A DNA stretch of 26,308 nucleotides from a virus (Duplodnaviria > Heunggongvirae > Uroviricota > Caudoviricetes). The position numbers were made by a program, and so were the translations under genes. The notes under the pieces were generated by a model. It searched no databases. It saw nothing but the letters and a program-made list of their open reading frames with translations, and was not told where the DNA came from. The DNA is taken from the IMG/VR virus record IMGVR_UViG_2713896785_000023; one strand, written 5' to 3'. Below, piece after piece: positions 14,711-19,110 of this stretch; the stretch's first letter is position 1, and each line of letters starts with the position of its first letter.

Positions 14711-14770
14711 ATCAAAAAGGAAATATTTTTTATTAAATATCAATAAGGTAACAAAAATCACCCCAAAAAA

Positions 14771-14809
14771 ATAGAACTTGCTATTGCCATAATTTATAGC
14801 AAGTTCTAT
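14771..14809. promoter_or_regulatory. Perfect 12-bp inverted repeat (ATAGAACTTGCT-N15-AGCAAGTTCTAT), candidate operator or terminator
   Basis: Read directly; lies between the repressor gene and the double-HTH gene. Confidence 0.4.
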
Positions 14810-14874
14810 TATGCTCTCATTCCAAATAGATGGAGTTAATGAGATGAGGGCAAAACCGACTCTGACTTTTAATG

Positions 14875-15542
14875 GCTTTTCCATGCACCCACTGGATGCG
14901 CTAAAAAATACCGCCGTTCTTTTTGAAGCTGGATATTTATTAGCTACATCAAATAACCATGAATACTGTGAAATTGGCGATACCATAGTTGCTTTGGCCA
15001 CTGATTACGCCTTCGAAGTAAAAAACGCAATTTTTTATTCAAGACAAGATATTGCTCCTGAAAAACAGCCTGAATACATGGTTAACCTTAGCACCCAACG
15101 TGAAGCCTGCGGTTTGACGACCACCGAACTGGCCAGACTGCTCGATCTTGACGAAGAGATTATCCTGCAATGGGAGAGTGGAGAATACGAACCAACCATC
15201 AGCATGCTAATCCCCCTGGCAAATGTCCTGGGATGCGATCCTCTTTCTCTGCTGAGTGAAAAAAATAGCGCTGCTGCTGTTACCGTAAATCAGCCAGACA
15301 TCCAGGAGGAAAGCATTGGCACACGTATAGAAGCCGCACGTAAAAAAGTTGGACTGACAGAAGCAGACCTGGCACGCATGATTCACACCTACAACGACCC
15401 CATAAACGACTGGGAGTGCGGTATCTGCGAAGTCCCCGCAAGCCAGATCATTCCACTGGCTAATGCGCTTGGTTGCGATCCGATGTGGCTGTTAACTGGT
15501 GGGCCTATTGCCCGGGCTTCATCAGATACCATGGGGCAATAA
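14875..15542 (+). CDS. Protein with unknown N-domain plus two tandem XRE-type HTH domains
   Basis: Two HTH segments (GLTTTELARLLDL...PLANVLGCDPLSLL and GLTEADLARMIHT...PLANALGCDPMWLL); GGAG RBS before ATG at 14875 (track start 14811 also possible). Confidence 0.6.
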
Positions 15543-15765
15543 CATCGCCGCGCTTTTCTACAAGCTGAGAGCGAATTTCACGAAGTTCTTCAACTGAGGA
15601 GCCGAAAGCCAGAGTGACATAATCGCCACTTCTGCCATCAAGATACATACGGACATTTCTCTCAACCATTGCGGAAACAGTCTCAATATGAAAACACTTC
15701 TGAGACTCACTATATAACAGAACATACATGTCAGCTGAGGAAGCCATGAAAAAGTTCGAAAACAT
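15505..15765 (-). CDS. Possible small antisense-oriented ORF (86 aa), doubtful
   Basis: Protein-like translation but overlaps the 3' end of the double-HTH gene and the 5' end of the next plus-strand gene; no clear RBS. Confidence 0.2.
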   Translation of the reverse strand: MFSNFFMASSADMYVLLYSESQKCFHIETVSAMVERNVRMYLDGRSGDYVTLAFGSSVEELREIRSQLVEKRGDVIAPWYLMKPGQ

Positions 15766-16111
15766 AACTGTTCTCCATGTTGATAACTTTGATTATACAA
15801 ACCAGGAACTTCTCCCGGAGGTTGTAAAGGCAATAGATGTTGCCGATATAGTGATTAGAGGAAAGAGAATTGTCAAAAACAGGCTCGCATGCACTTCAGG
15901 AGCAATGACAGAAACAACCTCACAGCAAGATAATTACGAAGGCATTTGTCTGGAGCCTGATTCATTTGCGGTAAATGTTTATCATTTATTGCATGCAACA
16001 CAGGTATTACATATGTCCAGTAATCACGAAACAAAAGTACTTGGCAGCGAAATTCTGAATTTTGCATGTGAATATGCAAAAGCTGCTGCCGAAAAAGAAT
16101 TAGCGCAATAA
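15746..16111 (+). CDS. Hypothetical protein (about 121 aa)
   Basis: ORF with GAGGAA RBS before ATG at 15746; no recognisable motif; not Arg-rich (not N-like). Confidence 0.5.
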   Translation: MKKFENITVLHVDNFDYTNQELLPEVVKAIDVADIVIRGKRIVKNRLACTSGAMTETTSQQDNYEGICLEPDSFAVNVYHLLHATQVLHMSSNHETKVLGSEILNFACEYAKAAAEKELAQ

Positions 16112-16309
16112 CAATAAATATTCCCTGAATGTTTATTACGGTTTTATAGCCGGGGATTGTTACAACCTTTATTCATAGAGGGAACTCAGTTATGACTTTC
16201 CTGAAAAATAAGGCATCGTATAAAACTGCCTGCCTCATTGCGCAACATGGAGATTCTTATCTTCATATAGCCAACCTGTATTTGCGCAAAGCATATGGGA
16301 GATAAATAA

Positions 16310-16498
16310 ATGAAAGAAAAACAACAGAACATAACACATAAAAAAGTAAGAGTGTTGCTAACCATTGAAAATGGTGAAGTAATTTACTCAAAACATCTGT
16401 TGGATAATGAATTCGTTGGCTGCATGGATACATTTCTGTGGATGGCAAAAAGAGCTGGCTACACGATTATTCCACCAGCAAAGGAGCAAACATTATGA
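16310..16498 (+). CDS. Hypothetical small protein (62 aa)
   Basis: GGGAGA RBS; stop overlaps the next start. Confidence 0.45.
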   Translation: MKEKQQNITHKKVRVLLTIENGEVIYSKHLLDNEFVGCMDTFLWMAKRAGYTIIPPAKEQTL

Positions 16499-17109: not shown

Positions 17110-17253
17110 ACTAACCGTTTATATGAAAAGCAACCGTGAATTAAGCAGAGTAAAACTGTTTTTAATCCTTGCCACAGTACTGACACTAACAGAAATCATT
17201 ATTCTCTTTATTGCGCTGTCAGTCAGTTAAAAATATCGGGATGCAACAAACCA

Positions 17254-17442
17254 ATGAGATTGTATTTCAGAATAGTAATTTTACTGGCAATTATCGCATG
17301 CATTTACGGACTACTCGTCCCGTTCCTTATATCCATGAAGGATACGGTAGCAGTCATTTCCGGCTTTGCACTGGCGTTTCTGACCCCGCCCTGCATTTAT
17401 GCCATTTACAAGGGTCTTTCTTTCACTAAGGATAAAAGATGA
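17254..17442 (+). CDS. Small inner-membrane protein (62 aa, two predicted TM helices)
   Basis: Hydrophobic stretches IVILLAIIACIYGLLVPFLI and VISGFALAFLTPPCIYAI; stop overlaps the SPFH gene start (ATGA). Confidence 0.5.
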   Translation: MRLYFRIVILLAIIACIYGLLVPFLISMKDTVAVISGFALAFLTPPCIYAIYKGLSFTKDKR

Positions 17443-18266
17443 AAAAAGTTATTTTTGCTTTAGCCATTGTTCTTCCGACCATTGGCCTTGTCGGTTGCGA
17501 TCGCGTTGAACCAGGTAATGTTGGCATCAAGGTAAATAAACTGGGCGACGACAAAGGCGTCGGTGAGGTGGTCGGTGTTGGTCGCTACTGGACTGGCTGG
17601 AATACTGAAGTTTATATCTTCCCCACCTTCAAACAAATGAAGACCTACGATGAACCGTTCAGTTTCCAGATGAGTGACGGTACAACCATCGGCTATCACA
17701 TCGGTGTGGCCTACAAAGTTGATCCATCCAAAGTTACCACGGTGTTTCAGACCTACCGCAAAGGCGTGGATGACATTACCGACACAGACCTGCGCCAGAA
17801 GATCGCAGATGCACTCAACCGACTGGCCAGCAAAATGACCACCGACAAATTTATCGACGGCGGTAAGTCTGAACTTCTGGATGCAGCTCTCAAAGACATT
17901 CAGGAAGAAATGACACCCATTGGTATTCAGGTAATGAGCCTCTCATATGTGGGTAAGCCGGAATACCCGCCAACCGTTATCGACAGCATTAATGCCAAAG
18001 TCACGGCGAACCAGAAAACCCTGCAACGCGAGCAGGAAGTAAAACAGCGCGAAGCGGAAGCCAACATGCTGCGCGCGGAAGCTGCCGGACAGGCTGATGC
18101 GATTCGTACAAAAGCCCAGGCAGAAGCCGATGCCATTCGTTTACGCGGCGAAGCTCTGCGCCAGAACCCAGGCGTCATGGAACTGGAAGCCATCAACAAG
18201 TGGAACGGTACACTGCCGCAATACATGACCAGTGGTGCCAATACACCATTTATCCAGATTAAATAA
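17439..18266 (+). CDS. SPFH/band-7 (prohibitin-like) domain lipoprotein
   Basis: Signal peptide with lipobox LVGC; band-7-like core and a C-terminal Ala/Glu-rich coiled coil (EAEANMLRAEAAGQADAIRTKAQAEADAIRLRGEAL). Confidence 0.7.
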   Translation: MKKVIFALAIVLPTIGLVGCDRVEPGNVGIKVNKLGDDKGVGEVVGVGRYWTGWNTEVYIFPTFKQMKTYDEPFSFQMSDGTTIGYHIGVAYKVDPSKVTTVFQTYRKGVDDITDTDLRQKIADALNRLASKMTTDKFIDGGKSELLDAALKDIQEEMTPIGIQVMSLSYVGKPEYPPTVIDSINAKVTANQKTLQREQEVKQREAEANMLRAEAAGQADAIRTKAQAEADAIRLRGEALRQNPGVMELEAINKWNGTLPQYMTSGANTPFIQIK

Positions 18267-18294
18267 CTTATATGCCCGGCAAACCGCCGGGTTA

Positions 18295-18678
18295 ATGGAA
18301 AATCAGATGAACAACCAGAATACTCAACCGCAAATAATGAACTATGACCCGAATCTGACGTCGTGCGGACGCATGGCAAAACAAACCGTTCGATTAACTT
18401 TCGGACTATGGGAATACCGCGAAACATTCGAAGTTACTGTCGGCGGCAATCTGACCGGACTGGATGTTATCAGTTGCGCTATTGAAAGCCTGTACGCAAC
18501 GCTACCTTATGAAGAAGTCAGGGATAAGCGTACTGGGGAAACGGATATCATGGCCACCATTAATATTGGCGAACTGATATGCCAGGATGAAGACCTGTCC
18601 GGAGAGCTCTGGCTTGCCGGGATGCTTGTCTCAGCAGAAATTATCAGTATTGAACCCGCTACAAACATACGACTCTGA
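18295..18678 (+). CDS. Hypothetical protein (about 127 aa)
   Basis: ORF; start uncertain (track begins at 18232 overlapping the SPFH gene). Confidence 0.4.
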   Translation: MENQMNNQNTQPQIMNYDPNLTSCGRMAKQTVRLTFGLWEYRETFEVTVGGNLTGLDVISCAIESLYATLPYEEVRDKRTGETDIMATINIGELICQDEDLSGELWLAGMLVSAEIISIEPATNIRL

Positions 18679-18710
18679 AGTTCTCACTATTCAGAGAGCA
18701 GGAGAAAAAA

Positions 18711-18952
18711 TGTTCGCTCTGATTAATCAAGGACAACTGTATACCGACAGTGCCGGTTACCCGGTAAAAATTGTTCGCTGCATAAACAACACCGTGTTGT
18801 ACAGAAGAATGGACGGGCAAACACAATCGGTAAAAATGAACGATTTTAATGAATCGTTTGAACGGATCGATCACCAGGAATACCGACAAATTCTGGCAGA
18901 AACAGAACAGGAAGCTCATCTGAAAAAATTACGTGCCATGAAAAGGAAGTAA
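18711..18952 (+). CDS. Hypothetical small protein (80 aa)
   Basis: Good RBS (AGGAGAAAAAATG); MFALINQGQLYTD... Confidence 0.45.
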
Positions 18953-19110
18953 AGAATGAATAAAGCGTTTGAGCTATGGGTACGCCAGCGTTACGGCAAT
19001 CGCTATGACCTGACGCGAGATGTTGACGGTTTCTACTGTCGCGAAATTGTGAGACGAATGTTTGAAGTGTGGTGCCACTGCCGTGGGCTGAATGTTGTGT
19101 GAGGTGATGT

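Follow-up and report, generated by a model that had tools for sequence, protein, structure and literature searches.

The 26,308-nucleotide (nt) stretch analysed here (the window; IMG/VR virus record IMGVR_UViG_2713896785_000023, Caudoviricetes) carries the early half of a Shiga toxin 1a (Stx1a) prophage, according to RefSeq annotation and family scans. All coordinates below are positions in this window unless another accession is given. From position 2611 on, it is 99.996% identical to the chromosome of Escherichia coli strain 2013C-3264 (NZ_CP027544.1). The subject of this report is the early left arm of the prophage (14711–19110), bounded by the end of a cI-like repressor gene at 14710 and the start of the excisionase gene xis at 19111. 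The interval of about 4.4 kb given between repressor and xis in a first-pass annotation of this DNA is therefore exact. The repressor (13964–14710, + strand; RefSeq start 13985; 248 amino acids (aa)) combines HTH_3 and Peptidase_S24 domains (Pfam E-values of 7e-7 and 5e-15; phrog_4, 3e-51). At the other end, xis (19111–19320, +; phrog_2917, 2e-40) overlaps the tyrosine integrase gene int (19275–20447, +, RefSeq coordinates; phrog_1, 2e-65). In between lie nine tightly packed open reading frames (ORFs), all on the + strand, which lead directly into xis and into int as the final gene.

The ORFs were assigned one by one in scans against PHROG, Pfam and NCBIfam, supplemented by a six-frame scan for Arg-rich peptides. 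Every ORF of the arm has a strong PHROG match (E about 1e-24 to 1e-114), and two belong to Pfam DUF families. The first gene (14844–15542, +) encodes a 232-aa XRE-type regulator that matches the helix-turn-helix (HTH) family HTH_3 in two stretches (Pfam, 2e-15), as well as phrog_4739 and phrog_4836. It bears the PHROG label of a 'CII-like' regulator, its second HTH is weakly DicA-like (a weak NCBIfam match), and it occupies the position of L10 in the Stx2e phage phiP27 (AJ298298/NC_003356). Next come an L08-like ORF of 127 aa (15728–16111, +; phrog_5451, 2e-82; 97.6% nt identity to phiP27), an L07-like ORF of 62 aa (16310–16498, +; phrog_340, 3e-24) and an L06-like ORF of 193 aa with no known fold (16495–17076, +), all three of unknown function. 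A 62-aa hydrophobic membrane protein (17254–17442, +; phrog_1130 'membrane protein', 8e-24) follows, and its gene overlaps by 4 nt that of an SPFH/Band-7 lipoprotein of 275 aa, the counterpart of phiP27 L05 (17439–18266, +; Pfam Band_7, 6e-31; phrog_200 'lipoprotein'). The arm is completed by three more genes of unknown function, namely those for a DUF5406 protein (L04; 18307–18678, +) and a DUF4222 protein (L03; 18710–18952, +; Pfam DUF4222, 8e-16; phrog_285), and a 48-aa ORF (18956–19102, +; phrog_3871, 3e-35). For comparison, 80 related loci were collected as the IMG/VR contigs best matching one protein, the L06-like one; the L07-like ORF is found in 79 and the 48-aa ORF in 76 of them. The nine ORFs had been described as a string of small unknown genes. 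They are indeed real, but they are not orphans, as they correspond to phiP27 L03–L08 and belong to PHROG, DUF5406 and DUF4222 families. In a weak sense they also match known early-left phage genes, an outcome that the first-pass annotation had named as a refutation of its reading; the sense is weak since the families are known and the functions are not.

Two of the ORFs are related to each other. The N-terminal ~50 residues of the two-HTH regulator (14844–15060) are paralogous to the C-terminal half of the L08-like ORF (15905–16111; BLASTP E-value 3e-4), and both ORFs match phrog_4587 (66 aa). It is noted that RefSeq annotates as a gene only this C-terminal half of the L08-like ORF (68 aa). 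Substitutions relative to phiP27 and to phage ASU11 (vB_EcoS_ULI-O80_Stx2d, ON416862) are biased toward third codon positions in those arm ORFs where there are enough differences to judge. In the SPFH gene, 32 synonymous and 4 non-synonymous differences from phiP27 were counted; in the L06-like gene, 29–31 of about 50 changes from either phage fall at codon position 3. This bias indicates that the arm ORFs are real expressed genes under purifying selection. A PDB sequence search with the L06-like, L08-like and DUF5406 proteins gave no match, and the AlphaFold2 models of the L06-like and DUF5406 proteins, although confident (predicted local distance difference test scores of 88.5 and 85.9), yielded no informative fold match. 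By sequence, all arm ORFs are members of phage protein families, with a predicted function assigned only for the regulator and the SPFH protein.

Control signals are found on both sides of the repressor gene. A search for the motif AATAG-N6-CTATW returned 10 strand-matches in the window, compared to 2.4 expected, a count reached in none of 100 shuffles. With the exception of one match with one mismatch elsewhere, the matches all lie in the gaps on either side of cI, where they make up five operator copies. Three are in the OR region (13872–13962), between cI and a cro-like gene, at 13887–13902, 13912–13927 and 13945–13960; the remaining two (14770–14785 and 14795–14810) are located 60–100 bp past the cI stop codon and form the arms of a perfect 15-nt inverted repeat (14770–14810). 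The cro-like gene (13589–13849, − strand, RefSeq coordinates; Pfam YdaS_toxin, 4.6e-12, and P22_Cro, 5.7e-5; phrog_35), with a YdaS/Cro HTH, is the first of the PR operon, and its promoter PR (−; TTGCAT-17-TATTAT) was read within the OR region from sequence and alignment. A promoter scan also placed a PRM-like promoter at 13914–13942 (+). Overlapped by the two operators past cI is a sequence with a 10/12 match to a sigma-70 promoter (14784–14812), directed into the arm, with a −35 element TTGCCA at 14784–14789 and a −10 element TATTAT at 14807–14812. Its alignment with PR is gap-free and in register, and the operators lie in equivalent places. In ASU11, the OR region is identical to that of the window and the second region is 98% identical. 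The repressors of phiP27 and of the O145:H28 Stx1a phage Stx1_14040 are different, yet the layout is the same, with their own repeated half-sites (GTATCA/TGATAC) flanking a TTGCCA promoter after cI. Based on the operator motif, the inverted repeat, the PR-like geometry and the layout shared with relatives, we therefore predict that 14770–14812 (+) is a true PL/OL. The same operator motif thus occurs at both divergent early promoters around the repressor, the architecture of a lambdoid immunity region, and the arm is very probably repressor-controlled from a defined PL/OL.

The first-pass annotation had reported no N, cIII or Red gene in this arm, and tblastn, the Arg-rich scan and the family scans all agree. 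Searches of the whole window by tblastn with lambda N, cIII, kil, gam, bet, exo, ral, sieB, rexA/B, ea10 and cII gave nothing better than E about 1; the sole exception, with cII, is a chance-level HTH match inside the cro-like gene. N-like peptides with an arginine-rich motif (ARM), a proposed check that was to include short ORFs, were sought by scanning all six frames from stop to stop with thresholds calibrated on the ARMs of lambda, P22 and phi21 N. No such peptide is encoded on the transcribed (+) strand of 14711–19110, and the only match in the arm (15283–15447) is antisense and out of frame. The PHROG, Pfam and NCBIfam families matched by ORFs of the left arm and the PR operon include none with an N or recombinase annotation. 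The gene just after PL encodes the two-HTH regulator and not an N-type Arg-rich protein, and the early-left operon contains no recombination module of the Red (exo/bet/gam), RecET, Erf or Sak type.

Sites for N action are likewise missing, as neither the PL nor the PR leader contains a nut site (boxA plus boxB). Loose boxA matches number 12, compared to 18.9 expected, and none downstream of PL or PR is exact. No boxB-like GNRA hairpin with a 5-bp stem was found on the transcribed strands. The PL leader to the first gene is only ~25 nt long. At a permissive threshold, Rfam detected no family in the arm, nut- or put-like RNAs included; its matches elsewhere in the window are to C4/isrK, STnc100 and AgvB only. 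Between PL and int, a standard scan detected nothing terminator-like on the + strand. A looser scan of the arm for a hairpin followed by a T-tract yielded irregular hairpins only; their tails were mixed, and they were not judged convincing terminators. Folding of the intergenic gaps against shuffled sequences gave nothing that stands out (z from −1.8 to +1.4). Without a nut site or a convincing terminator in the operon, antitermination of the N type would have neither a target nor an obvious purpose.

The arrangement of this arm is that of a module already present in phiP27, whose early-left genes run from L02 to L11. Nucleotide identity to phiP27 L03–L08 is 94.7% over 3.46 kb (window 15662–19123), and the order L08-L07-L06-(L05)-L04-L03 between an XRE regulator and xis/int is collinear in the two, down to the SPFH lipoprotein and its 62-aa partner, which is unannotated in phiP27. 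The phiP27 XRE regulator is likewise the first gene after the repressor, and N, cII, cIII and Red are absent. Differences from phiP27 lie in the immunity type (cI, cro, operators and first regulator), xis/int, the attachment site and Q, and phiP27 carries stx2e where the window has stx1a. Smith et al. (2012, PMC3430580) noted N 'in all but phage P27', with cIII also absent and no cII orthologue identified; the absence of N in this type of phage is thus already known in the literature. ASU11 is 95.5% identical to the arm and shares the cI gene. The two-HTH regulator and L08 of ASU11 show 99.7% identity to those of the window, and the order of L07, L06, DUF5406 and DUF4222 is kept. However, it lacks the membrane/SPFH pair, has another xis/int and carries stx2d. 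The annotation of its whole 44-kb genome includes no N or Red gene, and yet this phage has been induced, forms plaques on K-12 and establishes stable lysogens (PMC9751135). With very few deviations, the 80 related loci share the order regulator-L08-L07-L06-(membrane-SPFH)-DUF5406-DUF4222-orf48-(xis)-int, and no homologue of the lambda genes N, cIII, kil, gam, bet or exo was found within 8 kb in any of them. At least part of the arm is present in 890 of 5426 complete E. coli genomes. The long-tailed Stx1a phages of O145:H28 (LC5678xx) differ in their small left-arm ORFs, but their Q, the three-gene island next to it and stx1a are 100% identical to those of the window. The lambda PL operon resembles that of the window in diverging from PR around cI, in having repeated operators at both promoters and in ending with xis-int, with late genes under the control of Q. 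Unlike lambda, however, the window has no N, nutL, tL terminators, cIII, kil, gam, bet, exo, rex or sieB, its first gene encodes an HTH regulator, and the interval from cI to xis is ~4.4 kb compared to ~8 kb.

Considering these observations together, we regard it as likely that the arm is a complete and intact N-less PL operon of the phiP27 type, belonging to the long-tailed Stx phage lineage, in which cI/cro immunity and Q are retained and N/nut, cII/cIII and Red are absent by design. In the lysogen, cI bound at the OL-type operators would silence the arm. Upon SOS-induced cleavage of cI through its S24 domain, RNA polymerase would start near 14819 and continue as far as xis-int unaided by any phage antiterminator, so that only the late operon would need antitermination, provided by Q. 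The two-HTH XRE regulator would be a likely decision or early regulator and the remaining arm genes accessory early genes, with recombination left to the host. Several points weigh against this proposal. The promoter, the operators and the readthrough to int are predictions from the DNA sequence. The 80 loci, as the best matches to a single gene, are close relatives, so that common ancestry accounts for part of their agreement. Weak AU-rich hairpins with U-runs after both L08 (~16113–16148) and L06 (~17084–17110) could be leaky terminators, and Rho-dependent terminators are not predictable from sequence here. Finally, a protein antiterminator without an ARM, or an RNA system of the HK022 put type, would be compatible with the tests described above.

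The first-pass annotation had offered a choice between an N function supplied differently and a partly defective prophage. This choice is not needed, given that the same N-less arm and immunity occur in the plaque-forming ASU11 and an N-less arm also in phiP27; for the same reason, the missing N, cIII and Red genes are not a sign of decay. A decayed lambdoid prophage, in which these genes were once present and then deleted to leave a shortened and non-functional left arm, would fit the cI-to-xis interval of about half the lambda length and could point to lesions elsewhere in the element. But the arm contains no remnant of any lambda left-arm gene, its nine ORFs are intact and co-linear with those of the viable phiP27 and ASU11, PL follows directly after cI, and the same order recurs across the related loci. 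We therefore consider decay of the arm extremely improbable. The lesions themselves deserve mention. The portal gene (NZ_CP027544.1 1648243–1649745, outside the window) otherwise matches that of ASU11 along its length, but has a premature stop ~60 codons before its end where the ASU11 portal has a Trp. RefSeq flags this internal stop and calls the capsid, tape-measure and Q genes frameshifted. As to the suggestion of a partly defective prophage, lesions are marked in portal, capsid and tape-measure, but they are unrelated to the arm: the prophage is possibly defective through late-gene lesions outside the window, some of which could be assembly errors, and with the portal stop and the capsid and tape-measure frameshifts it may be unable to make particles.

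Q (6878–7225, −) was, together with terminators, correctly placed in the right arm by the first-pass annotation. The 115-aa protein is identical in seven O145:H28 Stx1a phages, where it is annotated as intact, and its residues 1–113 align with other Q proteins (126–144 aa). Both points speak against decay and make the frameshift call for Q doubtful, and the notion that a frameshifted Q amounts to a dead late switch was set aside as unproven on these grounds. The C-terminus is, however, 11–30 aa shorter, and the gene ends at the junction with the low-GC island. Q also shows a weak similarity to sigma-70 region 4/ECF sigma models (E 2e-4).

A second explanation keeps early antitermination and assigns it to an agent that was not recognised, such as a small protein (the L07-like, L08-like or 48-aa ORF), a put-like RNA acting in cis, or N from a co-resident lambdoid prophage. 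Several ORFs without known function or fold would be available for this role, and the strain carries many lambdoid prophages, with 15 matching places on the chromosome. The two AU-rich hairpins of the arm could provide a need for it, as could two clear intrinsic terminators of the PR operon (12320–12307 and 11667–11650), which transcripts from PR have to cross before they get to the replication genes and Q. These two, however, coincide with C4/isrK small RNA (sRNA) genes and are more simply read as the sRNA ends of a P1 immI-like module, and no convincing terminator was seen on the + strand of the arm. With no ARM, boxA or boxB-like hairpin found, N acting in trans would lack a target, and the PL leader is too short to fit a nut or put site ahead of the first gene. 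Antitermination by such an agent is, in our view, unlikely.

The membrane/SPFH gene pair requires separate consideration. The two genes are always found together (66/66 loci) and are present in 66 of the 80 related loci, with an Ea22-like gene replacing them in four. As they are also missing from ASU11, and as a similar pair recurs in P88, a P2-like phage whose early operon has a distant 62-aa counterpart ahead of the SPFH gene, the pair is predicted to be an optional, exchangeable and mobile two-gene cassette. The SPFH protein has a Band_7 domain well above the family cut-off (PF01145, 108 bits compared to 23.6). Among solved sequences its nearest is HflK (E 2e-4), but it is not an HflK or HflC equivalog, as its scores against TIGR01932 and TIGR01933 are 25 and 23 bits compared to cut-offs of 134 and 159. 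It has the Band_7/SPFH domain in common with HflK/HflC, the SPFH modulators of FtsH, and differs in being anchored by a lipid and not by an N-terminal transmembrane helix. Its lipobox, LVGC, is followed by Asp at +2. Under the +2 rule, Asp at this position of a lipoprotein leads to inner-membrane retention, and the protein is predicted to be held in the inner membrane facing the periplasm. The 62-aa partner has no Pfam match and does not qualify as an NfeD-type partner.

Such a cassette raises the possibility that the arm is mainly a cargo bay for morons, with genes for lysogenic conversion or superinfection exclusion expressed in the lysogen. Consistent with this are the optional nature of the pair and its occurrence in the unrelated P88, the filing of the 62-aa protein under 'moron' in PHROG, and a G+C content that varies from 39% to 50% along the arm. 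In Pasteurella multocida, a prophage-encoded SPFH protein described as HflK/C-like has been reported as a virulence factor (PMC9872710). On the other hand, seven of the nine genes occur almost throughout the lineage, unlike typical cargo. All of them lie on the same strand in the repressor-controlled operon, which predicts expression upon induction and not in the lysogen, and neither a promoter scan nor a reading of 17076–17254 revealed a separate promoter before the cassette. A comparison of the arm ORFs with the PADLOC defence families gave nothing beyond generic HTH matches, and those to RmrA and CapH were rejected as domain-level noise. The cargo-bay explanation therefore appears doubtful for the arm as a whole, although we would still allow it some chance. 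While the first-pass annotation had regarded the ORFs in general as candidates for lysogenic conversion or exclusion, such a role seems plausible only for the membrane/SPFH cassette. A more specific idea is that the cassette may mimic host HflKC and alter FtsH on induction or infection, so as to replace the role of cIII in acting on the stability of the 'CII-like' first regulator, with the L08-like protein as the partner or antagonist of this regulator; we consider it very unlikely.

The favoured reading of the arm as an intact N-less PL operon corrects an expectation centred on lambda. A large group of long-tailed Stx phages, with phiP27, the Stx2d phage of O80:H2 and, from O145:H28, the Stx1a and L-Stx2 phages, would share an early programme without N, cII/cIII and Red. 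Models of Stx induction based on 933W or lambda should accordingly not be transferred to this group. Early regions of long-tailed Stx phages have been reported to be organised differently from those of short-tailed ones, a difference linked to lower Stx2 output (Nakamura et al. 2024, PMC11333237). What is added here is small: a sequence-level picture of PL/OL, and a list of conserved, uncharacterised early genes.

Outside the arm, the genes of the window are arranged in the order stx1AB, a three-gene island, Q, DnaB, DnaC-like, O-like, two small unknowns, two 'ash', lar, ant, cro-like, cI-like, the arm, xis and int. By family scans, the PR operon consists only of ant (12658–13512), lar, the two ash genes, the O-like, DnaC-like and DnaB genes and small unknowns. 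Tandem modules of C4 antisense RNA and isrK sRNA were detected on the − strand at 11536–11721 and 12189–12377, with Rfam scores of 75–85 and 62–64 bits, above the gathering scores. Each copy has its own intrinsic terminator (11667–11650 and 12320–12307, respectively), followed by an 'ash'/Rha-like regulator gene. The pair would represent a duplicated switch of the P1 immI/Gifsy-1 IsrK type, placed in the PR operon with ant/lar on one side and the replication genes on the other. On the + strand at 13484–13575, a sigma-70-like promoter (TTGACT-17-CATCAT) is followed ~25 nt on by a strong GC hairpin with a T-run (13536–13565; fold z = −2.5). An antisense RNA of ~50 nt would result, directed against the region between cro and ant and the ribosome-binding site of ant, an arrangement that we take to resemble the sar antisense RNA of P22 immI.

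The three-gene island (4740–6847, +), between Q and stx1A, is low in G+C (~33%), is encoded on the opposite strand from Q and matches phrog_12777, 11490 and 9664, all of unknown function. Late transcription from just downstream of Q would cross ~2 kb of antisense island sequence before reaching stx1. Near the start of the window, the STnc100 sRNA occurs twice (2184–2392 and 2647–2860), and AgvB/AsxR-like sRNA matches are found at 2123–2182 and 2612–2645. Positions 1843–2610 differ from NZ_CP027544.1, apparently by an extra tandem copy of ~460 bp. At the far end, a weak partial match to transfer-messenger RNA (15 bits, E 0.022) is located just past int at 20567–20606. In the region beyond int (20450–26308), RefSeq annotates ypjA (split or truncated), a fragment of a pinH-like recombinase, ypjCB and tRNA-Ile. 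We take these surroundings to be those of the CP4-57 element in K-12, and this would suggest integration of the prophage at or next to ssrA.

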